38,577 nt of DNA from assembly GCA_035253365.1 (NCBI GenBank), contig DATFCE010000313.1:1-38577 (forward strand). The letters are read 5' to 3'. The position numbers were made by a program, and so were the translations under genes. Source of the stretch: Nitrospiraceae bacterium. Lineage in GTDB: Bacteria > Nitrospirota > Nitrospiria > Nitrospirales > Nitrospiraceae. The notes beneath the pieces are model-generated. The model saw nothing but the letters and a program-made list of their open reading frames with translations. It was not told where the DNA came from and did not search any database. Each line of letters begins with the position of its first letter. The first letter of the stretch is position 1. Shown in pieces: positions 3,445 through 32,668 of this stretch.

Positions 3445-3520
3445 TCCCCGGTAGCTCAGTTGGTAGAGCGATCGGCTGTTAACCGATTGGTCGCAGGTTC
3501 GAGTCCTGCCCGGGGAGCCA
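3445..3520 (+). tRNA. tRNA-Asn (anticodon GTT)
   Basis: 76 nt folded by hand. Acceptor TCCCCGG/CCGGGGA, D arm GCTC-AGTTGGTA-GAGC, anticodon arm ATCGG-CTGTTAA-CCGAT, T arm GCAGG-TTCGAGT-CCTGC, encoded CCA. Confidence 0.95.
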
Positions 3521-4037: not shown

Positions 4038-5558
4038 ATGCGCCTCTTACGCCACAGTCGACGCCCCTGGGTCATCGGATCGGCATTGCTTCTGCTGTTG
4101 GGTCACCTCGCCGGGTGTTTCTCCTCTCGAAGTCCGGATGGCGGGAGTCAGGCTAAGTTTACCCTGCCCCGACACATCAATGCGGACGATGTCGCGCTTC
4201 CATCCGGTTATCGTATTGATGCAGTGGCTACCGGTCTGACGTTTCCGACTGGTGTCGCATTCGATCGCGAGGGTCGCGTGTATGTGACGGAAGCGGGCTA
4301 TTCATATGGCGAAGTGTGGGACATCCCGCGCCTAGTCCGAATCAATGCCGACGGCAGCATGGCCGTCGTGGCGGTCGGGGAAAACAACGGTCCGTGGACC
4401 GGCGTGGCCTTCCATGAAGGGACCTTCTACGTGGCGGAAGGAGGCGCGCTTCGTGGCGGGCGAATTCTGCGCATTACTCCGGAAGGAGCCGTGACGCCAC
4501 TTGTGGAAAATCTCCCGAGCATGGGTGACCATCAAACCAACGGGCCCGTCATGGGTTCCGACGGATGGCTCTACTTCGGAGTAGGAACCTTCACCAATGC
4601 CGGCGTCGCCGGAGAAGATAACGTGAAATTCGGATGGCTAGGTCGGTTTCCGTACCACCACGATATTCCCTGCCGCGATGTGACGCTGACCGGCGAAAAC
4701 TTCAGGTCCGGTAATCCGCTTACGCCGAACGATGATGACACGATGTTGACCGGCGCTTTTGTGCCGCTAGGCACTACAACGAGTCAAGGGCAGAAGATCC
4801 GCGGACAAACGCCGTGCAGCGGCGCCATTATGCGCGTCCGGCCAAACGGGGATGAGCCTGAACTGCTGGCATGGGGATTTCGAAATCCGTTCGGGCTGGC
4901 CTTTTCACCCGACGGACGTCTATTTGTAACGGACAACAGCTACGATGACCGTGGAAGCCGGCCGGTGCATGGTACGGGGGACCTACTTTGGGAAGTCAGG
5001 TCAGGACACTGGTACGGATGGCCTGATTTCCATGGCACGCGGCTCTTGAATGACGGCGATCATTTCGTTCCACCGGGCAAGCCGCGCCCCGGACTCCTTT
5101 TGTCAAAGCATCCCGGCATTCCTCCTTCCCCGGTTGCCGTGCTGGACGTACACTCCTCTTCCGACGGATTTGATTTTTCCAGAAATCCCGCGTTTGGGCA
5201 TGTGGGTCAAGCCTTCATTGCTCAATTTGGCGATCAATCTCCGACATCCGGAAAAGTCCTTGCGCCGGTGGGCTTCAAGGTTGTGCGGGTCGATGTGAGG
5301 ACCGGAGTGATTGAAGAATTTGCCGCCAATAAAGGACGCCAGAACGGGCCGGCCTCGAAAATCGGCGGGGGCGGTTTTGAGCGTCCGATCGCGGCACGTT
5401 TCGATCCGACCGGGTCGGCGCTCTATGTAGTGGACTTCGGCGTGATGACGCTGGGACAAGGCGGAAAAGTTCGACAGCCCTGGACCTCGTCCCAAGTGGC
5501 GGCCGAGCCGCGAAAGGGCACGGGCGTCTTGTGGCGCATTACCAAACCTATGCAATAA
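4038..5558 (+). CDS. PQQ-dependent sugar (glucose/sorbosone) dehydrogenase-like beta-propeller lipoprotein
   Basis: 506 aa. Signal peptide with a perfect lipobox (LLGHLAGC). Repeated propeller signatures ATGLTFPTGVAFDREGRVYVTE and GFRNPFGLAFSPDGRLFVTDN, typical of the soluble GSDH/sorbosone dehydrogenase family. Confidence 0.75.
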   Translation: MRLLRHSRRPWVIGSALLLLLGHLAGCFSSRSPDGGSQAKFTLPRHINADDVALPSGYRIDAVATGLTFPTGVAFDREGRVYVTEAGYSYGEVWDIPRLVRINADGSMAVVAVGENNGPWTGVAFHEGTFYVAEGGALRGGRILRITPEGAVTPLVENLPSMGDHQTNGPVMGSDGWLYFGVGTFTNAGVAGEDNVKFGWLGRFPYHHDIPCRDVTLTGENFRSGNPLTPNDDDTMLTGAFVPLGTTTSQGQKIRGQTPCSGAIMRVRPNGDEPELLAWGFRNPFGLAFSPDGRLFVTDNSYDDRGSRPVHGTGDLLWEVRSGHWYGWPDFHGTRLLNDGDHFVPPGKPRPGLLLSKHPGIPPSPVAVLDVHSSSDGFDFSRNPAFGHVGQAFIAQFGDQSPTSGKVLAPVGFKVVRVDVRTGVIEEFAANKGRQNGPASKIGGGGFERPIAARFDPTGSALYVVDFGVMTLGQGGKVRQPWTSSQVAAEPRKGTGVLWRITKPMQ

Positions 5559-5588
5559 CGCGAGAAGAACCACGGGTGGGTTAGAGCC

Positions 5589-5942
5589 ATGAGCATGCGA
5601 CGGCATGCCTTTCTGACGGTAGTGGTCATAGTCCTCGCCTCGTTGTGGTCCGGTTGTGGCTCGGCCCGTCGAGGCGAGCCCATTGCGGGACCGATGGTAA
5701 TCGCTTCTCCAGAAATCAAACAGGGACAGCAAGCCTTTATGAAACACTGCCACCAGTGCCACCCCGGCGGGGAAGCGGGGCTGGGTCCGGCTTTAAATAA
5801 CAAACCGCTGCCCCAATTTCTCATGCGCTTTCAGGTGCGCCAGGGATTCGGAGCCATGCCGGCCTTCTCCGAGCAGGAAATCAATGACGAGGACTTAGAC
5901 CACCTCCTGGCCTATCTCAAAGCACTGAAGAGCCATGGATGA
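5589..5942 (+). CDS. class I c-type cytochrome (monohaem), exported
   Basis: 117 aa. Hydrophobic signal ending in SGC. One CXXCH haem motif (CHQCH). A distal Met candidate in GFGAMPAF. Confidence 0.8.
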   Translation: MSMRRHAFLTVVVIVLASLWSGCGSARRGEPIAGPMVIASPEIKQGQQAFMKHCHQCHPGGEAGLGPALNNKPLPQFLMRFQVRQGFGAMPAFSEQEINDEDLDHLLAYLKALKSHG

Positions 5943-6061: not shown

Positions 6062-6745
6062 ATGACCGATTTCACGGCCCTTGCTCATTTCTTGTTCCAA
6101 TGCGCCAACAGCCGTGTCCCCGCCCACGCTCATGACCAACTCGAGGCGCTGGCGCAAGGGATGCGGTTACACCAAAAGGGCCGAGGCTTCCAAGAATCGT
6201 TCGCGACAGCGACTCGGCGATTCGGCAGCGCCACAATTTCCCTCACAACAATCGAGACGGGTGAACTCGCCCGGCTCGGTGTCATTTGGCCGCCTATCCA
6301 TAGGCTCGACGAGCTCGTCAGAATCGCTATGCTGACTATCGCCGCCGCGGACCTAACCGAACCGGCCTACCGGGTGTTGATTCAAGACTGCTACGAACAT
6401 GGCGACGTCCGAGAGCGTCGCGCAATCCTTCGAGCCTTGCCGTTCTTGCCTCATGGCGATCGCTTTCTAGCTCTGGCGTTGGAGGCATGCCGGAGCCACG
6501 TTCTCCCAATCTTCGAGGCAATTGCCTGCGAGAATCGTTATCCAGCCGAACATCTTCCGGGACAGAACTTCAATCAGATGGTCTTGAGGGCTCTTTTCAC
6601 AGAAACGGCCATAAGTCGGATAGTCGGGCTCGAGAAACGGATCACCCCCGAGTTGATGCAAATGGCACGGGACTATGCCAGTGAACGGCAAGCCGCCGGG
6701 CGAAGCATACCGCCGGATGTCCGGCGACTGGCGCACGGGGAGTAG
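6062..6745 (+). CDS. eboA: EboA-family protein
   Basis: Assigned mainly from position directly upstream of eboB and from size (227 aa from ATG 6062; the track ORF starts at a TTG at 5960). My memory of EboA conservation (GD..ER.AILRAL, NRYP, NQMVLRALF, ERQAAGR) is approximate. Confidence 0.6.
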   Translation: MTDFTALAHFLFQCANSRVPAHAHDQLEALAQGMRLHQKGRGFQESFATATRRFGSATISLTTIETGELARLGVIWPPIHRLDELVRIAMLTIAAADLTEPAYRVLIQDCYEHGDVRERRAILRALPFLPHGDRFLALALEACRSHVLPIFEAIACENRYPAEHLPGQNFNQMVLRALFTETAISRIVGLEKRITPELMQMARDYASERQAAGRSIPPDVRRLAHGE

Positions 6746-6808
6746 CGCGAACCGAAAGCAGACGACACGCCGGACAATCTCTGCCAATCATGTTTGGAAG
6801 GAGCCATC

Positions 6809-7711
6809 ATGCGCTGCTTTGATCCGCACATCCATATGACCTCAAGGACGACCGATGACTATGAAGCCATGCGGCGCGCCGGCATTGTGGCCGTCATCGA
6901 GCCGTCCTTCTGGCTGGGACAGCCCCGCACCCATATCGGAACCTTTGAGGATTATTTCAGATCGCTCATCGGGTGGGAGCCGTTTAGAGCGAGCCAATTC
7001 GGCATCCGCCATTTCTGCACGCTCTCACTCAATCCTAAGGAGGCCAACAACCCAAGCGTGGCGGCCGGTGTCATGGAACTCCTTCCGGCCTATCTCAATA
7101 AGGATGCGGTCGTCGCGGTGGGGGAGATCGGCTATGACGAGATGACGCCCGATGAAGATCGCTACTTCGAGCTTCAACTAGAGCTGGCGCGCCGATTCGA
7201 ATTGCCCGTGCTCGTCCATACGCCGCATCGCGATAAGAAGCGCGGGACGGAGCGGAGCCTCGCGCTGATCCGGAATGCCGGATTCTCCGAGGACCGTGTG
7301 CTCATCGACCATAATACGGAAGAAACGCTCCCGTTGGTGCTCGCAACCCGGTGTTGGGCAGGCCATTCAATCTATCCAAAAACAAAAATGGACGAACCGC
7401 GGATGGTCGCGCTCGTGAAACGGTATGGGGCAGAGCGAATCATCATCAATAGCGCGGCCGATTGGGGGGTCAGCGATCCGTTGAAGGTGCCGAAAACCGC
7501 CGCGCTGATGCGCGAAAGCGGCATCGCGGAGAAGGACATCGAGACTATCATTTGGCACAATCCAACCGCCTTCTTCAGCCAGAGCGGCAAACTCGATCTC
7601 GGCGCCGTCGAACAAGATCCCGACATTGACCAGACCCAACTTTGGGAAGGCAACAGCGTGCTCCGTGGCCAGGCGCCTGTCGGAGAAGGCAAAGGTAAAG
7701 TAAAAAGGTAA
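6809..7711 (+). CDS. eboB: TatD-family metal-dependent hydrolase (EboB)
   Basis: The N-terminal FDPHIHM motif is typical of TatD amidohydrolases. SD GGAAGGAG lies 6 nt upstream of ATG 6809 (the track start at 6794 is TTG). Confidence 0.85.
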   Translation: MRCFDPHIHMTSRTTDDYEAMRRAGIVAVIEPSFWLGQPRTHIGTFEDYFRSLIGWEPFRASQFGIRHFCTLSLNPKEANNPSVAAGVMELLPAYLNKDAVVAVGEIGYDEMTPDEDRYFELQLELARRFELPVLVHTPHRDKKRGTERSLALIRNAGFSEDRVLIDHNTEETLPLVLATRCWAGHSIYPKTKMDEPRMVALVKRYGAERIIINSAADWGVSDPLKVPKTAALMRESGIAEKDIETIIWHNPTAFFSQSGKLDLGAVEQDPDIDQTQLWEGNSVLRGQAPVGEGKGKVKR

Positions 7712-7774
7712 AAGCAGATCTACGGAGCAATTACCTGTTTACCTTTTGCCTTTTTACTTTTACCTTACGAAGTC

Positions 7775-9154
7775 ATGCACCGCACGCTCGTCCTCAACGT
7801 CGTGGGATTAACGCCGTCCCTACTCTCGGATGTCACGCCGAATCTGCACGCGCTGGCGGCGCGCGGAGGCATGCGACCGCTGAAGACAATCTTGCCCGCC
7901 GTCACCTGCCCGGTCCAATCTGCCTTTACCACCGGACTGCTCCCGCGTGACCACGGGTGCGTGGCCAACGGCTGGTATTTTCGCGACCTGTCGGAAGTCT
8001 GGTTATGGCGCCAATCCAACCGCTTAATCGGCGGAGAAAAGATCTGGGAGACCGCGGCGCGCCGAGATCACAACTTTACCTGCGCCAAACTCTTCTGGTG
8101 GTACAACATGTACAGCTCCGCCGACTATACCGTCACACCACGGCCTCTGTACCCAGCCGATGGGAGAAAAATTCCCGACATCTACACGCAACCGGCCGAG
8201 CTCCGCGAGGAGCTCATCCAGCGATTCGGTCCGTTTCCCCTCTTTCATTTCTGGGGTCCCGCTGCGGATATCACATCAAGTCGCTGGATCACCGACTGCG
8301 CGCGGTATCTCTACGAAACCCGGAGGCCGACGCTCACGCTCGTCTACCTTCCCCATCTCGACTATAACTTGCAACGGCTCGGTCCGGATCATCCGCGCAT
8401 TAGAAATGATCTGACAGCCATCGATGCGCTCTGCGGCGAATTGATCGACCAGGTCCAGCGCAATGGCGACAGGATCGTAGTGCTTTCCGAATATGGAGTG
8501 ACGCCGGTCATCGGGCCGATCCACATCAACCGCGCGCTTCGCGAGGCCAAGTGGCTTCGTGTCAGATCGGAATTAGGACTCGAAAGGTTGGATACCGGCG
8601 CGTCGGATGTATTTGCCGTCGCGGATCATCAAGTGGCTCATGTGTACGTCCAAACATCCGAGCTCGTGAAAGAGGTTCAGCAGCGGCTGGAAGCGTTGGA
8701 CGGCGTGGAAACGGTGCTCGATGAGGAAGGCAAACGAGCCTGGGGGCTCGATCATGAGCGCTCCGGAGAGCTGATCGCGATCGCGAGGCGGGATCGATGG
8801 TTCACCTACTATTACTGGCTGGATGACCGAGTCGCGCCGGACTTTGCGCGCACCGTCGACATCCATCGCAAGCCGGGGTACGATCCCGTGGAGCTGTTTC
8901 TGAATCCCGCGCTTCGCGTGCCGAAACTCCAAATCGGATGGCGCCTTCTCAAGAAAACATTGGGCTTGCGTTATCTCATGGATGTGATCTCCCTGGATGC
9001 CGGGCTGGTGAAAGGATCTCACGGCCGAGTGGAAGACGACCCGTCTTCGGGTCCGCTGCTCATCTCAAGCGAGCCGTCATTATTGCCGGATACAGGCATC
9101 CATGCGACCGACGTGAAAGATCTCGTGCTCAAGCATCTCTTCGACAAGAGCTAA
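7775..9154 (+). CDS. eboF: alkaline phosphatase / nucleotide pyrophosphatase-phosphodiesterase family protein (EboF)
   Basis: 459 aa. The N-terminal VLNVVGLTPSLL is typical of type I phosphodiesterase/NPP family proteins. Ebo context. Confidence 0.8.
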   Translation: MHRTLVLNVVGLTPSLLSDVTPNLHALAARGGMRPLKTILPAVTCPVQSAFTTGLLPRDHGCVANGWYFRDLSEVWLWRQSNRLIGGEKIWETAARRDHNFTCAKLFWWYNMYSSADYTVTPRPLYPADGRKIPDIYTQPAELREELIQRFGPFPLFHFWGPAADITSSRWITDCARYLYETRRPTLTLVYLPHLDYNLQRLGPDHPRIRNDLTAIDALCGELIDQVQRNGDRIVVLSEYGVTPVIGPIHINRALREAKWLRVRSELGLERLDTGASDVFAVADHQVAHVYVQTSELVKEVQQRLEALDGVETVLDEEGKRAWGLDHERSGELIAIARRDRWFTYYYWLDDRVAPDFARTVDIHRKPGYDPVELFLNPALRVPKLQIGWRLLKKTLGLRYLMDVISLDAGLVKGSHGRVEDDPSSGPLLISSEPSLLPDTGIHATDVKDLVLKHLFDKS

Positions 9155-9167
9155 AAATCATCTGTTA

Positions 9168-9872
9168 TCAAGTTCCTTGAACGGCCCGTTGCCATCGCAG
9201 GGTCAGGAAGAACGCGATTCCCGTCAGTCCTGCGGTGGCGATGGCGCCCCGGCTGAGCATGAGCACGCCATCCAGTAAAGAGATGCCGGCAATCAACGTC
9301 CCAACCATACGAGGTGTTGCCTTTCGCTTGGCGATATAGGTCAGTCCCACGACGTAGCAGAACAGGACAGTGGCGGCGGCAATCACAGGGAAGGCCAGCT
9401 CGCCTGCTACAACGACCGCAGCCGTGATGTAAATTAATGCTCGGCACAGGCCCATCATCCACGGTCCAAAAGGATTCCGCTTGTGGTGCGCATCATAGCC
9501 GATAATCGCCGCCGCCAACGTGACGGCTGCGACTGTCGGCCCCCATCCGTTTTCAAAGCCGATTGCGATGATCATCACGATTCCCGCCAGCACCATTCCA
9601 TAACCCATCGCAAACACCGTCCGAGCCGTGATAAGCCCGGCTGGTATGGGTCGCTCCGGGCGCTCGCGTCTATCGAAGTCTCGATCGAACCCATCGTTGA
9701 GAAACATCCCGCCGATGTAGAGCAAGCTAAACGCTGCAAGCAGCGCCGGCACACGGACAGCATCGAGCGACCCGCCCGCCAACACCACGCCAGTGAGCGT
9801 ATTCGTCCAGACGGTCGGCAGGTTGGAGACGCGACCCAGCCGGAGATACAACGCTAACCGTTCAAATCGCAT
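9168..9872 (-). CDS. eboC: UbiA-family prenyltransferase (EboC)
   Basis: Polytopic membrane protein with the Asp-rich motif NDGFDRDFDRRE. The start is ambiguous: ATG at 9872, 9893 or 9959. 9872 gives the usual short N-terminus before YLRLGRVSN and overlaps the eboE stop by 19 nt. Confidence 0.85.
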   Translation of the reverse strand: MRFERLALYLRLGRVSNLPTVWTNTLTGVVLAGGSLDAVRVPALLAAFSLLYIGGMFLNDGFDRDFDRRERPERPIPAGLITARTVFAMGYGMVLAGIVMIIAIGFENGWGPTVAAVTLAAAIIGYDAHHKRNPFGPWMMGLCRALIYITAAVVVAGELAFPVIAAATVLFCYVVGLTYIAKRKATPRMVGTLIAGISLLDGVLMLSRGAIATAGLTGIAFFLTLRWQRAVQGT

Positions 9873-11089
9873 GGCACCTGTTGCAAGACCCATCGCAATT
9901 CCCGTGTGATGGACGTGACGATGTCTTCGCTTCGATATTCTTCCGGGAGGACATGCCATGTATAGGTCTCAATCTCCAGATGTTGGGAGAGAGCCTCGGT
10001 GCGAATGAGCACGAGCAGGCGTCGCAGGAACTCCTGTGTGTTGACGAATAGTCCCAAGTGCTCACAAAACAACGGAACGTGAAAATGGATTCGCCATTCG
10101 GCGTCTCCTGTGGCTGCTCCGGACAAGGCTTCAAGGGCATCCGGGAGATCCGTGTATCGGGTCAAGGTACCGTGTCTTCGTTCCACGACCTGGTGGAGGT
10201 ACACGTTTTCGCTGAAACGCGTCAATGAGGCGCGATGCTCCTGCCAATTGTCGTCCAGCCACACCCGAAGCCCCGCGCTGATCTGAATTTTGCCGATTCG
10301 GATGCCCGCCGCTTGCAGCGCCCGGACCACCGCGTCAGGATCCTCAAATTCCACGGCCATGTGACACGCATCCACACACACGCCAAGATGGCGTCGAAGG
10401 AAGGCTTCGCTTTCCCGCCGAGCCATACCCGTCAGGGTACCGAGTCGATCCACAGCCTGTTGCGAGAAAAGCCATCCCTCGAAGAAGGCAATGGTCTCGG
10501 CAACGGTTTCCAGAAAGCAGCATGGTTCCGGCTCCAACGCCAGCGACACGATCCGCCCGGTGCGCTCACGGATATGATGCAACACAGCCAGATGCCGGAG
10601 CAGCCGATCCGCGAGACACGCCACATCCGCATCACCGGTGATACGGGATCGAAAGGCTCCCGGCACCGTGCTGATACTGCCTTCCAGGTGTCCGAACTTG
10701 GAACCCAAAGGCAGCAGCGCGGCCAATAATTCGGCGAGCTGATTGGTGTATCGCAGTCTCCGTTCGTCCAACCAGTCCGGCAGATAGACCTGCTCTTTGA
10801 CCGGTTTTTCATGAAATTGCCCGTACGGAAAGCCATTGAGGGTAAAGACATAGAGGTCATGCGTCTGAAGGAAGGATGAAAAGGCCTCAAGCGCAGCGGG
10901 CTTGGCAAGATCGTCCGCCGCTTGAGCCGAGAGGCGAAGACCGATGCCAAATGGACGATCAGGGGCAACCTGTGCCTTGACGTTGAGGAGGTACCGTTGG
11001 AGATTATCTCGCACCTCATCCCAGGTTTCTCCGGGATGAATATTGGTGCAATAGGTCAAATGGGGATGGCCAGGCGACCCCAGCATCAT
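9854..11089 (-). CDS. eboE: xylose-isomerase-like TIM-barrel protein (EboE)
   Basis: 411 aa. N-terminal LTYCTNIHPGETW, which I recall as the EboE signature. Its ATG overlaps the eboD stop (ATGA at 11086-11089). Confidence 0.8.
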   Translation of the reverse strand: MMLGSPGHPHLTYCTNIHPGETWDEVRDNLQRYLLNVKAQVAPDRPFGIGLRLSAQAADDLAKPAALEAFSSFLQTHDLYVFTLNGFPYGQFHEKPVKEQVYLPDWLDERRLRYTNQLAELLAALLPLGSKFGHLEGSISTVPGAFRSRITGDADVACLADRLLRHLAVLHHIRERTGRIVSLALEPEPCCFLETVAETIAFFEGWLFSQQAVDRLGTLTGMARRESEAFLRRHLGVCVDACHMAVEFEDPDAVVRALQAAGIRIGKIQISAGLRVWLDDNWQEHRASLTRFSENVYLHQVVERRHGTLTRYTDLPDALEALSGAATGDAEWRIHFHVPLFCEHLGLFVNTQEFLRRLLVLIRTEALSQHLEIETYTWHVLPEEYRSEDIVTSITRELRWVLQQVPCDLNG

Positions 11090-12273
11090 GGGCGGTGCGG
11101 GGCATAGGTTGCAGAGAAAGCGCGGCCGTGAAGCTGCGCGATGGACGCGCGCATAAGGTCTACATCGATCTCGTGCGCCTCGAACCCGTCTCCGATCGCG
11201 CTTAACAGCGTGACGGTCAGCTCGCCGCCGAGATGCTCGCGGAATTCCGCCAAGCCGGTGAGCAATTCAGAATGCGCCAGGGCCTCATCCCACAACACCA
11301 GGCCGAGATTGTGTAACAGCCTCAGCACGTTCTCTCCCGCCGGACGCTCAAGAAAGCCGGCATTGATGGAGTAGAGCGTATCGAGCGCGACGCCGATTGC
11401 CACGGCCTCGCCATGCCGGAGACGGTAGCGAGTGAGGGACTCTAATTTGTGGGCAGCCCAGTGCCCGAAATCCAGCGGCCTGGCGCACCCGAACTCGAAC
11501 GGATCGCCCGAGCCGGCAATATGATCCAGATGAATCTCCGCGCAGCGCCTGATCAGAAACGACACGGTCTCCGGATCGCCCGCCTCAAGCAAGGGCGCCT
11601 GATCGACCATCCAGTCGAAGAACCGCGCATCGCGAATGAGCGCCGCCTTCACGGCTTCCGCCATTCCCGACACGCGGTCCCTCGGGCTTAATGTTTCGAG
11701 AAACCGCCGGTCATTCAGCACGGCGAACGGGGGAGAAAACGTGCCGAAGAAATTTTTTTTACCGAATGCATTCACGCCGTTTTTTACGCTTACGCCCGCA
11801 TCGTTCTGCGCAAGCACCGTGGTCGGAACACGGACGAGGCGAAGCCCCCGATGAGTAATCGCCGCGGCATAGCCCACCATGTCAAGAAGGGCCCCACCGC
11901 CTATGGCGACCACGCAGGCATGACGATCCATATTCCGGGCGTTCAGATCGGCATGGAGCCGGGCCACGAGGGTAGGGGCGTTCTTGGCCGCCTCCCCCCC
12001 TTCTATCACGATGGGCGCCCCTGCCAGATCCAATCGATCTCGATAAACGTCGGCGTAGCGTTGAATGTCCGCGCTCAGTGCCGGCCACGCCGAGGCCACT
12101 CCCCGATCAATGACGACACAGAGGCGATGCCGCCGTATCGGTTCGTTTCGCGAAATGACCGAGACCAGGCTGGGATTTGCGGAAGCAAACACCTCGGTCG
12201 TGAATACGACGGGGTACTCAAAGGGGACGGCAATCTTTTGCAGATGCAGGTCCATACCGCACCGTTTCAACAT
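11086..12273 (-). CDS. eboD: 3-dehydroquinate synthase-like sugar phosphate cyclase (EboD)
   Basis: DHQS-family nucleotide-binding motif VAIGGGALLDMVGYAAA. The track ORF reaches 12351, but that would overlap yjbQ. The ATG at 12273 shares its A with the yjbQ stop (TGATG). An alternative ATG is at 12255. Confidence 0.85.
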   Translation of the reverse strand: MLKRCGMDLHLQKIAVPFEYPVVFTTEVFASANPSLVSVISRNEPIRRHRLCVVIDRGVASAWPALSADIQRYADVYRDRLDLAGAPIVIEGGEAAKNAPTLVARLHADLNARNMDRHACVVAIGGGALLDMVGYAAAITHRGLRLVRVPTTVLAQNDAGVSVKNGVNAFGKKNFFGTFSPPFAVLNDRRFLETLSPRDRVSGMAEAVKAALIRDARFFDWMVDQAPLLEAGDPETVSFLIRRCAEIHLDHIAGSGDPFEFGCARPLDFGHWAAHKLESLTRYRLRHGEAVAIGVALDTLYSINAGFLERPAGENVLRLLHNLGLVLWDEALAHSELLTGLAEFREHLGGELTVTLLSAIGDGFEAHEIDVDLMRASIAQLHGRAFSATYAPHRP

Positions 12274-12695
12274 CACTCGCCGAGCACCTGCACGATCACC
12301 TCGCGCGTTCTCGCACGCGTATCGAAATCGATGACGACAATCTGCTGCCACGTACCCAACATCAGAGCGCCGTCTTGGAATGGAATCGTCACGGAGGGGC
12401 CCTGAAGTTGACCGCGCAAATGACTATGGCCATTGTCCTCGCCGGCATTGCGGGTGTTGTGCCGCCACGACGGGTCTGCAGGAATCAACGTTTCCCAAAA
12501 CGCTTGGGTATCCTCCCGAATCCCCGGCTCATCTTCGATGATCATGACCGACGCCGTGGTATGTCTGACGAAGACCGTCACGAGACCGGCGTTCAACCCC
12601 GTGCCGGCCAGCGCCTCTTGTACGTCTTGGGTCACATTCCGGACCTGCGAATCGCCTTTCATGCTGAGTCGCAACGGCATGTTTCTTACCGGCAT
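12273..12695 (-). CDS. yjbQ: YjbQ/UPF0047-family protein (secondary thiamine-phosphate synthase family)
   Basis: Aligns along its length with E. coli YjbQ from memory: HTTASV vs HTSASL, GTWQQIV vs GTWQGIW, C-terminal VLGE vs LQGE. Confidence 0.85.
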   Translation of the reverse strand: MPVRNMPLRLSMKGDSQVRNVTQDVQEALAGTGLNAGLVTVFVRHTTASVMIIEDEPGIREDTQAFWETLIPADPSWRHNTRNAGEDNGHSHLRGQLQGPSVTIPFQDGALMLGTWQQIVVIDFDTRARTREVIVQVLGE

Positions 12696-13615
12696 GCCGC
12701 ACCTGTCGCCATCTCTTTCAGATAACGCCGTTCTTCCTTGGATAAGGCGGTCCCGCGCGATTCAGCCACGATTGCATCAAAGACTCCCTCCGCGGCTAAG
12801 ACGCGAAGGGTCTCCATGACTGCCGCACTCACCATGCCCTCCCGCCGAAGCTTTTCCAAATACTCGAAGGCCTCCACCAGCGTTTCCCGCCGGCGGACAT
12901 AATAATCTCCGCCTCGTTGTCGATTGCTGTACGCTTCGAATTGCTCACAGGCAACCAAAATTTCCGCCAATTGCTTCACCCATGGCGTCGCCTCTGCGAG
13001 CTTCTCGGGATAATAGTAATACAGCATGATCGTGCCCATCCACGGCGACCACGGTACGCCCAGCGCCATAAGCTGCGGCCTTACCGCCCGCAGGCGCCGC
13101 TTCAAACGACGCGCATAGCCCAAGCGCATTTCGATCTGCTCCTGAGCCCAGGCATCGAGGTGAATGCCGGCGCGGCCGAGATCGCCGGCATACAGCTTGA
13201 GAAACGCCTCGGTTTCACAACCATAGCGGGTGTCAGGATAGACTGCGCGCCATTCGCGCGGTCGCGTCGGGATGCCATGTTGCTTGGCCCACGACCAAAT
13301 TTTTCCGAACAACCGACGATCGAGCCCCGCACGACCCAGATCATGCAAGAGGCACGCAATCTGGTACCGGACCACTCGCGCCGGCGGATGTCCCAGTCGC
13401 AGCGCCACGGCAGCGCACATGCGGGCCGTCCGCACGGCATGAGGGCGGTCATAGCCTCGAATGATCCGCGCCGGGCGTCGCGGGTGAGGAACGTCATAGA
13501 ATCGCATGAGCGTGGAGACGAGTGCACGAGGCAAGAGTAGCCGGGCGGACGCCGTCGATTTGGATGGATCAGCCACTCGTTCCTCGTTCACCGCATCAAT
13601 CGTCCGCCGGTACAC
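12686..13615 (-). CDS. HD-domain phosphohydrolase-like protein
   Basis: 309 aa. H...HD signature (HAVRTARM...ACLLHDLGR). Its stop overlaps the yjbQ ORF start region, so the two are probably co-transcribed. Confidence 0.7.
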   Translation of the reverse strand: MYRRTIDAVNEERVADPSKSTASARLLLPRALVSTLMRFYDVPHPRRPARIIRGYDRPHAVRTARMCAAVALRLGHPPARVVRYQIACLLHDLGRAGLDRRLFGKIWSWAKQHGIPTRPREWRAVYPDTRYGCETEAFLKLYAGDLGRAGIHLDAWAQEQIEMRLGYARRLKRRLRAVRPQLMALGVPWSPWMGTIMLYYYYPEKLAEATPWVKQLAEILVACEQFEAYSNRQRGGDYYVRRRETLVEAFEYLEKLRREGMVSAAVMETLRVLAAEGVFDAIVAESRGTALSKEERRYLKEMATGAACR

Positions 13616-16577: not shown

Positions 16578-16739
16578 CCCGTTCCCAAATGGCCTGGAAA
16601 CGCCGGCATCGTGCTTCTTCTCAGCCGTTGCCATTAGTTGATTTCCTCGTCTTGTAAAATAGGCCCATCGTCGGCATGATCCGCACACTGAGAGGCCTGA
16701 ATGCGCTGATGAAGCGGACACCTCTTGCCATCGGAAGCA

Positions 16740-17816
16740 ATGTCCTCACCGATCAGAAAAATTGTTAAATCGTTTCTGCAAGCGGCGCATCTCTTGGGGC
16801 CCGCAAGAAGGCTGATCGCGCTCAACGCTGATGGCCGACGCATCGTCATGTTGCTGGCCGATGCAATGTCCGCATGGTGGGGCAGGACCATCCGGTATCG
16901 GCACAAGTCTCCGTCGGTCAAGCAGGAATTGTCATCTCTCCCGTCTATCCATTCCGACGTCCACGACACTTCTTTACACATTCAGAATCCCAAGCTGCTA
17001 TCGTTGTATGAGCGATATCACGCCCGGACTCCTTATCTTCGAATCACCTCGCCGTTGTGGCATCACATTCCACATCAGATGGACCTGCGCAATTTCCGCG
17101 ACCATTGCGGGTATCTATGGACGACGGAAAGCGCGTTTCGCTATAAGACCGCCGCTCGCTACGTCAGCCGTTTCGATCAGTTCAATCTTCTCCGGCTATT
17201 CGGGGAAGACAACGCATTCGGGTGTCGGACCTACCGCTGGAATGGTGTGGACATCTCGCGCGATAAGCTCGATTCGATTACCGAAATTTACTATCTGATC
17301 AGAAGATTTGGCCTGAACGTCTGCGATCAGGTCAAGGTGCTCGACATAGGAGCCGGATATGGACGATTGGCTCACCGATTTACCACGCTGTTTAAGCGTG
17401 CTGAGTACTACTGTGTAGACGCCATTCCGATTTCTACATTCTTGTGCGAGTTCTATCTGAGATTCCGGAAGGCCAAGCGCACCCATGTCGTGCCCTTTGA
17501 TCAACTCGACACGCTGGCGCAGCATCGTTTCGATTTTGCGATCAATGTCCATTCATTTCCCGAGCAGACCAGCGACTCAATCGAATGCTGGATGTCGCTC
17601 CTGGATTCCCTCGACCTCAAGCGCTTGGTCGTGGTCGATCACACCGGCCGTTGGTTGACGATGGAACATCCCGATAACCATTGGTCATGCTATTTCCCCA
17701 TCCTCCAGAAACACGGCTGGTCGCTCATCGATGCGCGACCCAAATACGAAACCGTCTTCGGCCATGTTTTCGGGATCTATCCAGAAGCGGTGTACGCCCT
17801 CTTTGCCCGAGCGTGA
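16740..17816 (+). CDS. class I SAM-dependent methyltransferase (sugar O-methyltransferase-like)
   Basis: Motif I VLDIGAGYGRLAH. First ATG at 16740 (the track start at 16725 is TTG). Confidence 0.7.
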   Translation: MSSPIRKIVKSFLQAAHLLGPARRLIALNADGRRIVMLLADAMSAWWGRTIRYRHKSPSVKQELSSLPSIHSDVHDTSLHIQNPKLLSLYERYHARTPYLRITSPLWHHIPHQMDLRNFRDHCGYLWTTESAFRYKTAARYVSRFDQFNLLRLFGEDNAFGCRTYRWNGVDISRDKLDSITEIYYLIRRFGLNVCDQVKVLDIGAGYGRLAHRFTTLFKRAEYYCVDAIPISTFLCEFYLRFRKAKRTHVVPFDQLDTLAQHRFDFAINVHSFPEQTSDSIECWMSLLDSLDLKRLVVVDHTGRWLTMEHPDNHWSCYFPILQKHGWSLIDARPKYETVFGHVFGIYPEAVYALFARA

Positions 17817-17914
17817 GCCATTAGGCCGCCCGTCCCCTATCTTTCTTCCCTTTTTCGGAATAAGCGGTATCTTAATGGTGATGAGCGTGAACACTTCTAT
17901 CGGCGAGGATAATT

Positions 17915-18082
17915 ATGAAGACGAATGATCCGGACCGTTGTACATCAGGCCATGATTTTACGCGCAACGGACAACAGACTGTTGTGCAGTGCCAAGGTTC
18001 AATTCACCATCATGGCTCGCATTTCTTCACCGAAGACCACTATACCGTGCGATGGTCGGACCCAAGCCGACACGCAGCCTAA
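17915..18082 (+). CDS. possible small Cys/His-rich protein (55 aa)
   Basis: Below the track length cutoff. I translated ATG 17915 to TAA 18080-18082 as MKTNDPDRCTSGHDFTRNGQQTVVQCQGSIHHHGSHFFTEDHYTVRWSDPSRHAA. SD GAGGA lies 6 nt upstream. It competes with the overlapping 17925..18137 ORF in another frame. Confidence 0.25.
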   Translation: MKTNDPDRCTSGHDFTRNGQQTVVQCQGSIHHHGSHFFTEDHYTVRWSDPSRHAA

Positions 18083-18310
18083 CCTACCCGGGAAAGAGTC
18101 GAACGGTACCGCATCCGCCGATCTTATAGAAGCCTGATTGAATGAGTCGTTCCTGGTGTGCGCCGGTCCCACGCCCTTCGATTCATTCACTCCCCACAAC
18201 TGCCGCCGCTTGCGTAACCCTTGAGACCCGAGCCTTACTTCTTCCGAGGAATGGCCCGGGAAGTATCATTCCGTTAAAACCCTTCCACGACTTCCCTTTC
18301 AATTCGAGCC

Positions 18311-18706
18311 ATGAAATTCCCTCTTGCAGATCTGCCCCATACATCGCCTTGGCCGCTCATGCTGTGCTGTGCCGGTCTTATCGTGTTGCTGTCATCGATT
18401 CCCCAACACGAATGGGCGAATCCCTTTTATGCCATACAACACAGCGATAAGCTGGAGCACGCCGTTGCTTACGCGGTTCTCACGTTGGCATGCCATCGAG
18501 CGTTCCGCTCCAGCAGCCGAAGGCCCCTCGCGCACTACGCCGGCGCCTTCTCCGTTTTGTTTGGCGTCAGCCTTGGTCTCGGATGCGAATGGTATCAATC
18601 CTTTATCCCCACCCGTTCAGTTGACGGATGGGATGTCGTTGCGAACAGTTGCGGCTCATTCGCCGCCCTCTGCGGCATAGCTGGCTTACGATCTCCTAAA
18701 AAATAG
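18311..18706 (+). CDS. VanZ-like membrane protein
   Basis: 131 aa with about four hydrophobic helices. DKLEHAVAYAVL motif characteristic of VanZ-like proteins. Confidence 0.7.
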   Translation: MKFPLADLPHTSPWPLMLCCAGLIVLLSSIPQHEWANPFYAIQHSDKLEHAVAYAVLTLACHRAFRSSSRRPLAHYAGAFSVLFGVSLGLGCEWYQSFIPTRSVDGWDVVANSCGSFAALCGIAGLRSPKK

Positions 18707-18918
18707 AGCCTAACCCTAGAGCGGACGCCTTCCCGCAAGTCCTTATATCCATCAGGAAAGGGCCTCTTTCGGCTAAAGACCTGACTTACCTGATCTAGAA
18801 TTCCGGCTTTGATACTGTGACGACCGGCTATACGACGAGTCTTTCCTTGAAAAATTTGAAACTGCGGAGGGAAGCATGGTATGTGCTCGTAGGATATACA
18901 GTCAACGCCGGCCGGATA

Positions 18919-19737
18919 ATGGAGCCTAAACAATTGTGGAACAACCCATGCAGGTTGAGTCCGGCGGAGATCCATGTCTGGTGCAGTCCGCTCGATGCGC
19001 CATACACATGCATTCAGAAGATTTACAACACACTTTCCGATCTCGAAAAGCAACGAGCCGGAGCGCTCCGCTTGCCCGAGCACCGGAGGTCGTTCATTGC
19101 GGCGCACGGGCTGCTGCGAACCATCCTGGCCTTGTATCATCCCACGGATGCCGAGCGAATCGAGTTGGCATACGGACCGAACGGTAAGCCGCGGCTGGCG
19201 CCTGAGGGGCGTGTGAAGTTCAATCTTTCGCATTGCGAGGATTTGGCGCTCGTTGCCGTCAATCTGGACCGCGAGCTAGGAATAGATCTGGAGCGCATCC
19301 GTCCGATAGCCGACTTGGAGAATATCGCGAGAACCTTCTTTTCTCCGGGGGAATGTCGGGACCTGTTCTCCCTTGGTTTCGAGCAGCGCACCGCCGCGTT
19401 TTTCACGTGTTGGACCCGCAAAGAAGCGTACGTGAAAGCTACCGGAGCGGGACTCTCGTGTCCATTGGACAGTTTCCGTGTCACCGTGGTACCAGGGGAA
19501 AACCCGGGCTTTATCGGCATCGACGGATCCCCCTCGGAGGCAGTAAATTTCACGCTACACGATGTCCGACCATCCGCGTTTCATGCCGCAGCCTTGGCCG
19601 TCGAGCGCCGGAACTATGACAACACCAGCATCGTCTACCGAAAATTCGCGAGCATGATGGATTGCCTCGATCACATATCTCGCTGCACCGGCAGCAATGT
19701 GCTCAGTGAATCCTCCATACCTAATCGTCATTTTTGA
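18919..19737 (+). CDS. Sfp-type 4'-phosphopantetheinyl transferase
   Basis: Motifs GPNGKPRL, FNLSHCEDLALVAV, GIDLERI and WTRKEAYVKATG. ATG 18919 gives the usual short N-terminus before EIHVW (the track GTG is at 18817). Convergent with the end of the NRPS/PKS operon. Confidence 0.85.
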   Translation: MEPKQLWNNPCRLSPAEIHVWCSPLDAPYTCIQKIYNTLSDLEKQRAGALRLPEHRRSFIAAHGLLRTILALYHPTDAERIELAYGPNGKPRLAPEGRVKFNLSHCEDLALVAVNLDRELGIDLERIRPIADLENIARTFFSPGECRDLFSLGFEQRTAAFFTCWTRKEAYVKATGAGLSCPLDSFRVTVVPGENPGFIGIDGSPSEAVNFTLHDVRPSAFHAAALAVERRNYDNTSIVYRKFASMMDCLDHISRCTGSNVLSESSIPNRHF

Positions 19738-19832
19738 AGGATCGATCGCACCAGTGTGGCTGGGACATCGATGGTAGGCACCGGATGATTGGAAGGGGCG
19801 CTGCCTCCGATGTCTTTGAACTTCGCGGGCAG

Positions 19833-20378
19833 TTAGGACACAGCGGTGATTGAGAGCGCCTGCGCCATGCCGGCCACTGTCGGATTCTCGAAGAGCAGCC
19901 GGAGTGGGATATCGCGATTCCATTCCCGCCGCATGGCCCAAACCAGCTTAGTTGCAAGCAGTGAATGCCCACCAAGGTCGGCGAAGAAGTCGTCGAATAC
20001 GCCCACCGGTTGGTGATTGAGCACCTGCTCGAACAGACCGACCAGCCGGCGCTCGAGCTCGTTTCGCGGCGCGATCTTCTTAGGCGGATCCGCGCCGGCC
20101 GCCTTCAGCATGCTCAGCTTCGGTCTGTCCAGCTTACCGCCGGACGTTCGCGGCAACTGCGGCACTTTTACGATTTGCGACGGCACCATATACGCCGGCA
20201 GCCGGTAGTTGAGAAAAAGCTGCAAATCTTGTGGGTCCACGGAAGTTCCCGCTTTTTCCACCACGAACGCCACCAAGTGCTCCTGGGGAGTGTCCTGAGC
20301 GGCGCGCTTCTCGGCCCACGATCGCCATAATGCTTGGTGCGCCGGCGACATGCTCAGAATTTCGTCTGCGTTGCTCAT
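19833..20378 (-). CDS. stand-alone A-domain C-terminal fragment (A9-A10) fused to a PCP
   Basis: 181 aa. LVAFVV, A9 LPAYMVP, A10 SGGKLDR, then the carrier motif FFADLGGHSLLATKL. Its ATG overlaps the upstream TGA (ATGA). No domain follows the PCP. Confidence 0.85.
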   Translation of the reverse strand: MSNADEILSMSPAHQALWRSWAEKRAAQDTPQEHLVAFVVEKAGTSVDPQDLQLFLNYRLPAYMVPSQIVKVPQLPRTSGGKLDRPKLSMLKAAGADPPKKIAPRNELERRLVGLFEQVLNHQPVGVFDDFFADLGGHSLLATKLVWAMRREWNRDIPLRLLFENPTVAGMAQALSITAVS

Positions 20379-23300
20379 TTAACGGCCCTCACGACCGCCA
20401 TCGAATCGGCCCACCAATACTGACAGCCTGGAGGCGGGTTCAATCCACGCACTAACGAAACGGAGAAGCTTTGGAAATGCCGCAGCAACAGTCGTTGATG
20501 CTCACGCCCCAAAGAATCGATCTCGTTCGAATAATACGTAAAGATGCCGCCCGGCCGCAGTAGCTCCGCCGCACGCGGGAAGAAACCCGCAGCGAACGTC
20601 GGACTCTCCAATACCTCACGCGAGTACTCTTCTTCGCTGGTGGGATACGTATCGAAGAGAATGGCATCGAAGATCGATTCCGGCCCTTTCCAATCCTGCC
20701 AGCGAGAACCGACCACACGAATGTCGGCGTCCGGATAGCGCCCGGCCCACACTTTCAGCCGTTCCGCCACGTCATCGTTGCACTCGAGAATCGTATGCGA
20801 CCGGAGCCCCCGTTCTTGCAGAAAGGTCGCCGCAATTCCCATCCCGAACCCCACCTCGAGCACATCCCCGTGAGAGGCCGCCGCCACATCGGCCAGCGCG
20901 GCCATAAGCGGCCGTTCCCACGCTTGCATAACTTGTTGGCCGTCGATGACTAACTCGTCAGATGACAATTGTACCGGCTCCGTCTTCCACGCAGATCCTA
21001 TTTCCGGTCGCTCTCCCCCGCGCACCAACCTCCGTGATATCCGATCCAGAGCATGCAGATCGCATCCCAATTCATTCAGCGCCCGCCGGAGCAGCCAGTG
21101 ACGCTGGGTCTCCTGCGGCGTCGCCATAAAGTGGTCATCCGGCATGTGCAAATACAATTCAAACTGCGATGACTTCAGCCACATCGTCCGGCCTCCTACT
21201 TTCCCGTCCTGTGACTCAAGACGAAGTAAAAACTCCGCTTCCGGCACGGACATTCGGCGGAGCATGGTCAGCAGCCGGTGTTCTTCGGCGAGTCCTAGCC
21301 CGGCGACCGGAACAATGGCCACACCGGCGTCCTCGATCACCGCATGCGTGCGAAGGGCATTTTCAATTTCTTCGAGCTCGATTCGAAACCCACGCAGCTT
21401 CACTTGATGATCGGACCTCCCCAGAAATTCAAGCATGCCGTCTTCGCGGAACCGCGCGCGATCGCCGGTCATGTAGAGGCGCTCGCCCTGCCGGAACGGA
21501 TGAGCCACGAATCGCGCCGCCGTCGCCGCGTCATCCTTCAGGTAGCCGCGCGCCAACCCGGCGCCGCCGAGATACAAGTCGCCTTGCATGCCAATCGGCA
21601 CGGGCTCATGTGTGCGACTCAACACATAGGCTTCATAGCCGGGGACCGGTCGTCCGAGCGGTGGGTCTGTCGTCAGCGTGTCCGGCGGACAGGGAGCGTA
21701 GGTGGCGGTGATGGTTGCCTCCGCGGGGCCATACGCATTGATCACCGCCAGTTGCGGAAGCAAGTCTCGACAGCGATTCACCAGTGTCGCTGTCAGGCGT
21801 TCCCCGCCGCAGATCAATCTCCGCAGGGTGACGCATTCATGAATGTCGGGATGATCGAGCATCGTCGACAGACTCGAAGGAACCATGTCCAGCGCTGTTA
21901 CGCCCTGTGTGCGAACCAATGTTATCAGTTCGTCGAGATCCCGGCCGTGGCCGGCCGTCGTGACGATGGCCGCGCCACACGCGAACGCATTTAAGACCTC
22001 GGCCAATGCCGCGTCAAAACTAAACGAGTATTTCTGCAGTACCCGGTCCTGTGGAGTTAGCGCAAGGTCGTGCTGAAACCAACCGATCTGTTGGAGCAGG
22101 GCTCGCTGCTCCAGCATCACGCCCTTGGGAGTGCCCGTAGAACCTGACGTATACATGACGGCGGCCAGCGCATTGGCGTCATGGGGTATCGGTTCGGGCT
22201 TGCGCCGCCCTGGTGAAGCGTCGCGCCACCACGTATCCGAATCACTGAGCAGAACACAGGGATTCGTATCAGCCAATAACCTGTCCAAGCGTAATTGAGG
22301 CAATTCCGGATCGAGGTACACATAGGCCGCGCCGGCCTTCCAGGATGCGACTATGGCAACGACCGTCTCCCTCGAATCGGTCAGATGAATGCCGACGATT
22401 TCTTCCGGCTTCGCGCCCCGTTGTTGCAGCGCAACCGCGAGCTGATCCGTCAACAGGTCAAGTTCGCCGTAGGTCAGTACCTGATCCGGAGAGATGATGG
22501 ATATCTCCCCCGCATACCGGATCGCCGTGTCCCGGAACCAGTCGGCGAGTGTCGCGGCCGGCCATGTCCCCGCCTGACGCGCCCCACTCCAATCTTCGAT
22601 TAACAGCGCCCTTTCGTCCGCCGTCGTCAGTGGAAGTTCATCGATGGCCGTGTCCGGATGCGCCATCACTTCTGTAAGCAACCGTTCCCAGCGAGCGAGC
22701 AGCCGCTCAATAGTCGACTCTTCAAAGAGATCACGGCTGAACTCCAACCGTGTCATCACACCTTCTGCGCTATCGAAGAGGTCCACCGCCAAATCCACGT
22801 CGGTGCTTTGCTTTTGATATCCGATGTCATCGAGTACGGCGCTCGCTCGAGCAACCGGGTGGCGCGTCTGTAACAAATGAAACGTCACCTGATACAGGGC
22901 ATTCCGTTGCAAATTGCGCTGCGGCTGAAGGTCTTCCACCAACCGCGCAAAAGGCAACTGCTGGTTCGAATAGGCGCGCACCGTGACAGCCTTCACCGCG
23001 CCGAGAATCGTTCGGAACGAATCCGCGCCGTGCACAGGAATCCGAAGCACAATTGTATTCAAGAAAAATCCGATGAGGCTCTCAAGCTCTGATTCGTCCC
23101 GCCCGGCCACCGGCGTGCCGAGGACGAGATCTTCCTGCCCCGTATACCGGTGAAGTAACGCGGCGAAGCCCGCCAGGAGCACCATATAAAGAGTAAGCCC
23201 CTCGCGTTTCGCGAAGGTCTTCAGCGAACGGGTGAGTCGTTCATTCAGCAACTGGGAACGCGTCCCCGCGGCGCCTGTAAAACGTACCGACCTCGGACGA

Positions 23301-24064
23301 TCACCCGGTAATTGCAGGGCCGTCATGCCGGCCAGGTTCTCTCGCCAATGAGCCAACAGCGGCTCGATCTTGTCGCGCGTCAATTGCTCTCTTTGCCAGC
23401 ATGCATAATCCGAATACTGGATTGCGAGCGGCGGTAACGGCGCATGAGTGCCCGCAAGGGTTGCGGCATACGCGGTGTTGACATCGCGCATCAACACATC
23501 CATGGACCAGGCATCCATGATGATGTGATGAACGGTGACCAATTGAACCAATTGATCGGGAATCCGGAGTATCGCCATGCGGAACAACGGAGCTTTTGCC
23601 AAATCGAAAGGCGTATTCGCCTGCTCCGAAGCGATGGCTCTCGCTCTATCCCAACGAGCGCAGGGCTCACAATCGCAAAGATCGATTTCTGCCCATTCAA
23701 CCTCGTACGGAGGCTCTATGGCTTGCTCCGGACCATGTTCCCCCGTGATGAACCGTGTCCGCAATATTTCGTGTCGTTGGACGACCAGCGTCCACGCCTT
23801 CTTCCAGGCTTGTAAGTCCAGAGCACCCGGTAATGACAAGTGAAAATGCAGGTGATAGGCGGAGTTATCCGGATCCATCTGATGAAGGAACCACAACCGT
23901 TCCTGGCCGAATGACAACGGCGCGCGTTGCAATCCGCGCTTCGGAATCTTCAGCGGTCCCGTTCGGTCGCGAACCATCGACTCAAGCAGTCGCAATTTGT
24001 CCGCAGACAGGCCGGCCAAACGCTTCTCCAACGGATGTCCCGCGATTTCAGAAAAACGATTCAT
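20375..24064 (-). CDS. NRPS: C domain - A domain core (A1-A8) - GAMT-like methyltransferase; lacks A9/A10 and PCP
   Basis: C: [90 protein letters not shown]. C-terminus: [25 protein letters not shown]. Confidence 0.9.
   Translation of the reverse strand: [1229 protein letters not shown]
20378..20956 (-). other. guanidinoacetate N-methyltransferase (GAMT/RMT2)-like domain at the C-terminus of the NRPS
   Basis: The last ~193 aa align with mammalian GAMT recalled from memory, right to the final residues ([20 protein letters not shown] vs [20 protein letters not shown]). SAM motif I is VLEVGFGMG. Confidence 0.75.
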
Positions 24065-32664: not shown

Positions 32665-32668
32665 ACGA

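Follow-up and report, generated by a model that had tools for sequence, protein, structure and literature searches.

In the window, by which we mean the whole 38,577-nt stretch of DNA that was analysed, the ebo genes stand in two groups on opposite strands that run towards each other. Does this layout record the recent rearrangement of a single operon, or is it how such clusters are normally built in this branch, and what would the cluster make? We favour, at a probability of roughly 0.8, an intact, chromosomal ebo biosynthetic cluster of an uncultured soil or rhizosphere Nitrospirota, built as the two facing units that are standard for its branch and yielding a saccharoquinoline- or thallusin-type product. 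The + strand unit would consist of eboA–eboB–eboF, possibly preceded by a gene designated P and a cytochrome c gene, and the − strand unit of eboD–eboE–eboC, possibly preceded by an HD-like gene and a YjbQ gene. The features are as follows.

4038..5558, + strand: gene P, encoding a predicted lipoprotein (lipobox LAGC); heads the + strand unit and may be an accessory gene
5589..5942, + strand: small cytochrome of the c type (PF13442, 58.9 bits), predicted to be a lipoprotein; partner of P
6062..6745, + strand: eboA, 227 aa (NF035938, PF28008)
6794..7711, + strand: eboB, TatD-fold hydrolase (PF01026); start at 6809 according to the gene caller
7775..9154, + strand: eboF, nucleotide pyrophosphatase/alkaline phosphatase family, 459 aa (PF01663)
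9155..9167, no strand: spacer from the eboF stop to the eboC stop, 13 nt, in which no terminator was found
9168..9893, − strand: eboC, short form, UbiA-fold prenyltransferase, 241 aa; the longest open reading frame runs to 9959
9854..11089, − strand: eboE, TIM-barrel protein, 411 aa (NF035939 equivalog)
11086..12273, − strand: eboD, DHQS-like sugar phosphate cyclase, 395 aa (NF004852)
12273..12695, − strand: YjbQ/UPF0047 gene adjoining eboD on the upstream side; its stop overlaps the eboD start
12686..13420, − strand: gene with weak similarity to HD domains, overlapping the start of YjbQ, 244 aa in the gene call (HD, 21.7 bits against a cutoff of 22)

A preliminary description of this DNA had called the cluster complete, and the profile searches agree: six intact genes with full-length profile matches were found, and the three motifs quoted in that description are all present in the translations. 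No foreign gene interrupts the six, which together occupy 6062-12273, and an independent gene caller run on the source contig gave the same ebo gene boundaries as the list of open reading frames. The proposed check of 6062..6745 and 9854..11089 against the Ebo family models returned matches above cutoff for both. The EboA protein passed the NF035938 domain model at 150.8 bits (cutoff 50), with PF28008 also on record, and reached 134.7 bits against the stricter NF035937 family model, under its cutoff of 320. EboE matched the NF035939 equivalog at 472.1 bits (cutoff 250) over profile positions 1-378 of 379. EboB matched PF01026 at 48.3 bits (cutoff 27; positions 1-252 of 253) and EboF matched PF01663 at 217.5 bits (cutoff 23; positions 1-342 of 342); these two proteins are 78-82% and 72-78% identical, respectively, to their counterparts in relatives. 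EboD scored 548 bits against the DHQS-like model NF004852 (cutoff 333) and fell below the true aroB model TIGR01357 (201 bits against a cutoff of 305). The solved structures nearest to it are dehydroquinate synthases and related sugar phosphate cyclases, and its gene adjoins eboE, as is seen in most related loci.

On the − strand, consecutive genes overlap by 1 nt (YjbQ/D), 4 nt (D/E) and 40 nt (E/C). Because the genes overlap or are closely spaced, we infer an operon structure; the short gaps and overlaps inside each unit would fit co-transcription and translational coupling, and the − strand unit probably starts with the HD-like gene. We rejected the idea that this gene and YjbQ are conserved ebo accessories: no YjbQ homologs were found beside ebo genes in other loci, nor were homologs of the HD-like gene found in related loci, and the two genes are specific to this locus. 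An Rfam scan returned two tRNAs only, with no riboswitch or small RNA near the cluster. The POR beta subunit matches Nitrospirota proteins only, at 84-92% identity, and the sequencing runs found to hold window sequence are exclusively of rhizosphere metagenome DNA, with no RNA run among them.

The chemistry of ebo had been described as still unknown, a statement now out of date, given that a preprint of May 2026 (10.64898/2026.05.21.724671) links the ebo genes to the biosynthesis of thallusin and saccharoquinoline. In that work, deletion of eboB, eboC, eboE or eboF abolished thallusin, aspartate was incorporated and hydroxyquinolines were farnesylated by EboC. Ubi-297/EboC likewise farnesylates hydroxyquinolines (PMC9235831), and PMC12904256 cites EboD as a DEI synthase. 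Profile searches showed that the thallusin biosynthetic gene set of the preprint is present in the window, which has eboB, eboC, eboE and eboF and, in addition, eboD and eboA. In the pathway that we propose, EboE, EboB, EboF and EboA would convert a cyclitol, together with L-aspartate, into a hydroxylated quinaldic acid, which would then be farnesylated, and possibly cyclised, by the membrane protein EboC, giving a saccharoquinoline- or thallusin-type meroterpenoid. The gene content, the integrity of the genes, the layout and the conservation of that layout are observed directly; we infer the mechanism from published work on orthologs and the product from orthology alone. The thallusin producers tested in the preprint belong to Bacteroidota, Actinomycetota, Pseudomonadota, Planctomycetota and Cyanobacteriota, and not to Nitrospirota.

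Work on Nostoc read ebo as a periplasmic export function (PMC6282210). Applied to the window, this scytonemin model would mean that no thallusin-type product is made and that a prenylated cyclitol lipid carrier moves other metabolites to the periplasm, where the P–cytochrome c pair would act on the cargo. Such a role would suit a periplasmic pair that stands beside ebo genes in the window as well as in no fewer than 34 of 160 related loci, a comparison set whose sampling was centred on the window's proteins. However, the preprint detects thallusin in cyanobacteria that carry ebo, N. punctiforme among them, and proposes an indirect origin for the effect on scytonemin. Moreover, the closest P homologs (64-74% identity; those named are from Nitrospiraceae and Ca. 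Manganitrophus) belong to pairs that stand without ebo genes. We therefore regard a carrier function of this kind as unlikely and retain the thallusin-type pathway.

The P protein itself is predicted to be a periplasmic six-bladed beta-propeller of the PQQ-type sugar dehydrogenase kind. Its profile matches (GSDH, NHL and SGL) are all weak; its AF2 model (pLDDT 88.3) has 3DAS, AA12 and sGDH as top PDB matches, and its homologs carry the name PQQ-dependent sugar dehydrogenase. Identification of P as a ScyE ortholog is not supported, since P scores 70.1 bits against a ScyD/ScyE family cutoff of 80 and its fold matches PQQ sugar dehydrogenases. No scy genes were found in the window, whereas scytonemin-associated ebo clusters have scyA-F adjacent. 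In six of the seven contigs found via P homologs, P is immediately followed by the cytochrome c gene; the exception, the Pedosphaera (Verrucomicrobiota) locus L165, has P alone. One Deltaproteobacteria locus has the pair linked to inositol-1-phosphate synthase and two TIM-barrel genes. The pair as an ebo-specific module is only partly supported. Metagenome locus L087 has an eight-gene order identical to that of the window (P, c, A, B and F facing C, E and D), from which it differs by a long-form EboC, a 135-nt spacer and protein identities of 52-79%. Extra genes also accompany the ebo set in the EDB cluster of Pseudomonas fluorescens NZI7, some of them with periplasmic signal peptides according to PMC12904256 and PMC6282210.

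The preliminary description had further held that eboA-B-F (+) and eboD-E-C (−) converge on a 13-nt spacer and that this is an unusual, rearranged form of a single operon. The geometry is confirmed by the open reading frames and by the junction sequence, GAGC TAA aaatcatctgtta TCA AGTT, in which exactly 13 nt (9155-9167) separate the stops; with A-B-F on the + strand and D-E-C on the − strand, the window lacks the co-directional single-operon order ABCDEF. The claim that the layout is unusual did not hold, because the synteny comparison proposed alongside it revealed convergence as the common arrangement among relatives, the outcome under which the locus was to be considered an ebo cluster of ordinary form. 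Of the related loci in this window-centred set, 84 have both eboC and eboF, and the two lie tail to tail in 44 of them. The spacer is at most 60 nt in 19 of these 44 (range −39 to +60 nt), and the 3′ ends overlap in 9 of the 19. Across all 160 loci, ABF and DEC are conserved blocks, and an ABCDEF-type order occurs in none. The tail-to-tail junction is found in Nitrospiraceae, Methylomirabilota/Rokubacteria, Myxococcota and SAR324, where it is often tighter than in the window.

The nearest relatives, Nitrospiraceae locus L170 (GCA_035273145.1) together with L171 and L172, have E-C facing F-B-A with spacers of 12, 8 and 8 nt. They share with the window the short EboC, the form of the junction and the E/C overlap, at identities of 61-63% for EboC, 81-82% for EboB, 77-78% for EboF and 64-65% for EboE. 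By contrast, they have no eboD beside eboE and no P–cytochrome c pair upstream of eboA, both of which are present in the window along with YjbQ and the HD-like gene. Orders other than ABCDEF had already been reported as typical outside Bacteroidota and Cyanobacteria (ABDEFC, FABDEC, DECABF and reversed genes; PMC5133447). Relative to the eustigmatophyte–bacterial operon eboABCDEF of that study (Yurchenko et al. 2016), the window has the same six families, here within 6.2 kb, and its DEC and AB(F) sub-blocks match the DECABF and FABDEC variants. It differs in that ABF is inverted relative to DEC rather than forming one co-directional unit with it, in its short EboC and in its Nitrospirota host. 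The tail-to-tail layout is normal for this branch of ebo clusters.

A search of the eboF/eboC junction found no terminator-like site or hairpin, in keeping with the earlier statement that there is no room for terminators between the opposing transcripts. Folding of the flanking 131 nt was no better than that of shuffled sequences (z = −0.25 and +0.26), and the single weak inverted repeat near the junction is located inside eboC. Neither a hidden bidirectional terminator nor a conserved element in or around the spacer was found, in view of the missing terminator match, the shuffle-like folding and the spacers of relatives, which are unrelated in sequence. An assembly artefact at the junction was ruled out by two other assemblies: a Logan assembly of run SRR5195108, made separately, matches window positions 8759-11235, junction included, at 100% identity, and an ENA assembly is 99.86% identical across 21 kb. 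Since the units are 13 nt apart and no hairpin lies in between, transcription of each has to stop within the opposing gene or past it, and there may be transcriptional interference at the junction.

These features, namely a spacer of only 13 nt and no terminator, could also be taken to mean that a canonical co-directional operon was recently rearranged and that the near-absent spacer imposes a locus-specific convergent read-through, antisense regulation or interference. The Nitrospiraceae MAG L080, which carries the same two blocks co-directionally as ABF-DEC, would be compatible with such a history. However, the junction is widespread over several phyla and common to the closest relatives, spacer sequences are not conserved and varied gene orders are already in the literature, all of which argues that the junction is inherited and not specific to this locus. 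A recent rearrangement is therefore quite unlikely; the retention of the same junction by relatives, at −39 to +60 nt in 19 loci, suggests instead that it is tolerated as well as inherited.

EboC departs from its described counterparts, including the EboC enzymes assayed in the preprint, by an internal deletion of 53 residues, with which two membrane helices are lost. Its best match, the NF035940 equivalog, gives 108.1 bits against a cutoff of 250, and the Pfam UbiA model PF01040 is passed. Full-length EboC relatives from ebo loci likewise score just 92-117 bits against NF035940, which indicates that this cutoff excludes the whole EboC clade. The NDxxDxxxD Asp-rich motif is conserved, and the gene sits within the conserved D-E-C block. 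A C-terminal truncation by rearrangement was considered and rejected, as EboC retains the conserved C-terminus (QR..GT) and has lost an internal stretch. That the cluster is decaying and the short EboC a non-functional remnant, as the loss of two predicted helices and the sub-cutoff score might suggest, is very improbable, given that full-length relatives score equally low, that about 35 sequence clusters make up a clade defined by the short form (56-76% identity; named members are Nitrospiraceae), that no invariant family residue is lost (N66, D67, D70, D74, Y133, H137, K138, R151 and D208 are among those kept), that the AF2 model is confident (pLDDT 94.3) with a UbiA fold and that loss of two helices preserves membrane topology. 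Because EboC is below the NF035940 cutoff and lacks two helices of the characterised enzymes, its substrate or product could differ; the short form could alter prenyl chain handling or cyclisation, and the Nitrospiraceae clade that carries it might make a different meroterpenoid.

The P–cytochrome c pair and, separately, the short EboC allow doubtful but more specific proposals. The pair would be a recurrent accessory module of non-Bacteroidota ebo clusters, acting outside the cytoplasm to oxidise the product of the ebo genes or the cyclitol from which it is made, and the short EboC might lead to a variant meroterpenoid. The oxidative step could correspond to the conversion of saccharoquinoline to thallusin and, if it takes place outside the cytoplasm, would also fit the periplasmic phenotype in Nostoc. 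The short EboC and the pair, associations so far, are concrete candidates for cyclisation and final oxidation, respectively. The direct consequences of the locus are modest. It places the ebo pathway in soil Nitrospirota, a phylum missing from the eleven bacterial ones that the 2026 preprint names. It also shows that ebo in this branch normally takes the form of a pair of convergent units rather than a single operon, which matters for cloning or refactoring these clusters and for reading the polar effects of knockouts.

The ebo genes of the window and their immediate neighbours are arranged as follows; A–F denote eboA–eboF, P the lipoprotein gene and c the cytochrome gene.

4038–5942, + strand, predicted lipoprotein β-propeller gene (P, 4038–5558), then c-type cytochrome gene (c, 5589–5942), just upstream of eboA
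6062–6745, + strand, eboA
6794/6809–7711, + strand, eboB
7775–9154, + strand, eboF
9168–9893, − strand, eboC (short form, 241 amino acids)
9854–11089, − strand, eboE
11086–12273, − strand, eboD
12273–13420, − strand, YjbQ/UPF0047 gene and weakly HD-like gene, overlapping each other and the eboD start

For the six ebo genes, the coordinates in the preliminary description were reproduced by the ORF list and by independent gene calling of the source contig, and the three motifs that it quoted were found in the translations. In profile searches, EboE passed its NCBIfam equivalog (472 bits versus a cutoff of 250), and the DHQS-like EboD passed NF004852 (548 versus 333), whereas the true aroB model scored below cutoff on this protein (201 versus 305). 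EboA passed a domain model (150.8 bits versus 50) and fell below the cutoff of a stricter family model (134.7 versus 320). The Pfam models TatD, Phosphodiest and UbiA were all passed by ebo proteins of the window. Because the profile matches extend over approximately the full length across the ebo genes, none has the appearance of a pseudogene. These searches support the earlier claim that the ebo cluster is complete.

The top match of EboC was NF035940, at only 108 bits versus a cutoff of 250. Full-length EboC relatives score equally low against this model (92–117 bits); the shortfall therefore stems from divergence shared by the entire clade rather than from the deletion that shortens the protein. 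As shown by alignment with relatives, this deletion is clean and internal, removing about 53 residues (two membrane helices), with the C-terminus conserved and every invariant family residue retained. The AlphaFold (AF2) model is confident (pLDDT 94.3, pTM 0.90) and matches the UbiA-fold structures 7BPU, 4TQ4 and 4OD5. About 35 sequence clusters (56–76% identity) make up the short-form clade; the form is present too in some Myxococcales and Azospirillaceae loci.

The 13-nt spacer (9155–9167) between the eboF and eboC stops is exact in the sequence, the junction reading TAA, aaatcatctgtta, TCA. Two further assemblies agree with the window: a Logan assembly, made from a different run, shows 100% identity over positions 8759–11235, and one from ENA shows 99.86% over 21 kb; the convergent layout is therefore real. 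The preliminary description regarded it as an unusual rearrangement, and the synteny comparison that it proposed was performed by placing the six ebo genes with tblastn on 160 loci (80 genome loci reached via EboE and 80 metagenome loci via EboF). Across these loci, ABF and DEC are conserved blocks, and how they are joined varies. eboC and eboF lie tail-to-tail in 44 of the 84 loci with both genes. The stop-to-stop distance is at most 60 nt in 19 of the 44, and in 9 of those 19 the 3′ ends overlap by 4–39 nt. The loci belong to Methylomirabilota/Rokubacteria, Myxococcota and SAR324 or are unbinned soil contigs. One comparison locus, L087, has an eight-gene order identical to that of the window (P, c, A, B, F → ← C, E, D). 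Fully co-directional loci also occur, with the order FABDEC in Burkholderiales and the order ABFDEC in a single Nitrospiraceae MAG (L080); the order ABCDEF was found in none of the 160 loci. The study that named ebo confines ABCDEF to Bacteroidetes, Cyanobacteria and Leptospira, with other orders and reversed genes typical elsewhere (PMC5133447), and ebo organization has been described as phylum-specific (preprint 10.64898/2026.05.21.724671).

The true nearest relatives of the window, reached via EboC, are L170 (a Nitrospiraceae MAG contig, GCA_035273145.1), L171 and L172. Like the window, they have an E-C → ← F-B-A junction, with spacers of 12, 8 and 8 nt, respectively, and the spacers have no sequence in common. 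Unlike the window, they have no eboD adjoining eboE; the upstream position is taken by genes for GGDEF and GerE-type regulators. This lineage may carry eboD at another genomic site or lack it. The window locus thus stands as an ebo cluster with a layout typical of its clade, not an unusual one.

Spacing within each strand points to two convergent transcription units: the plus-strand gaps are 30, 119, 48–63 and 63 nt, and the minus-strand genes overlap by 10 nt (HD-like/YjbQ), 1 nt (YjbQ/eboD), 4 nt (eboD/eboE) and 40 nt (eboE/eboC), the last overlap being kept in L170–L172. A consensus scan found no terminator at the eboF/eboC junction, the 131 nt flanking it fold no better than shuffles (z = −0.25 and +0.26 for the two strands), and the sole inverted repeat nearby lies within eboC. 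With no room for a terminator, the transcript of each unit would have to finish within or past the opposing gene. Given their overlaps with each other and with eboD, the YjbQ and HD-like genes are probably co-transcribed with eboD-E-C; neither was found beside ebo genes in the other loci.

Sequencing runs containing the window sequence are rhizosphere metagenomes only, and a search for RNA runs with it found none. The window comes from an uncultured member of Nitrospirota. The POR β subunit (1026–1931) is 84–92% identical to many proteins, and its named relatives are all Nitrospirota (Nitrospiraceae, Nitrospirales, Nitrospiria or Ca. Manganitrophaceae); those of the P protein and the short EboC are Nitrospiraceae. 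A tRNA-Asn(GTT) at 3445–3520 lies about 520 nt upstream of P; no repeat of it was found elsewhere within the window, and there is thus no sign of a tRNA-Asn-bounded ebo island. A second secondary-metabolite cluster occupies 16725–34252.

18817–19737, HetI-like PPTase
20375–24064, NRPS C-A module
24061–28599, KS-AT-KR-ACP PKS
28596–31883, NRPS C-A-T module
within 16725–34252, sugar-O-methyltransferase-like gene
within 16725–34252, type II thioesterase
within 16725–34252, subtilase

A tandem array (34353–34652; 60-nt period, about 5 copies, 76–88% identity) lies shortly upstream of the subtilase gene, in sequence with strongly negative AT skew. The 3′ half of tRNA-Thr(CGT) is copied in a 46-nt direct repeat (35485–35530 and 38129–38204; 96% identical), whose two copies enclose 2.6 kb with a G+C content of about 0.50, low against 0.58–0.61 elsewhere; they resemble the att sites of a small integrated element or of what remains of one.

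P encodes a 506-residue predicted lipoprotein, modelled as a β-propeller (pLDDT 88.3) nearest to PQQ-dependent aldose and glucose dehydrogenases, and its homologs are so annotated; its match to the ScyD/ScyE family was below cutoff in the profile search. The adjoining c-type cytochrome has 117 residues. Iterated searches placed the pair immediately next to ebo genes in at least 34 of the 160 loci and, among those of 12 kb or longer, in 25 of 69. Its placement varies by lineage (before D, before E, next to F or before A). Around the closest P homologs, the named ones being from Nitrospiraceae and Ca. Manganitrophus, the pair is present without ebo genes. The association with ebo is real and not exclusive, and no mention of the pair was found in the accessible ebo literature. 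In a Deltaproteobacteria MAG (L163, 10001–14787), the pair is followed by an inositol-1-phosphate synthase gene and two xylose-isomerase-like TIM-barrel genes, a layout resembling that of Actinomycetota, where ino genes take the place of eboD (preprint 10.64898/2026.05.21.724671).

The preliminary description held the chemistry of the ebo product to be unknown; published work on orthologs supplies it. EboC/Ubi-297 farnesylates hydroxyquinolines (PMC9235831). Thallusin requires each of eboB, eboC, eboE and eboF, its quinoline ring takes up L-aspartate, and its production follows ebo presence across five phyla (preprint 10.64898/2026.05.21.724671). An older model, in which ebo serves periplasmic export (PMC6282210), remains a rival. 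By orthology, the product of the window cluster is best read as a saccharoquinoline- or thallusin-type meroterpenoid, and the P–c pair is a candidate, as a lead rather than a finding, for the unexplained oxidative step of the pathway.
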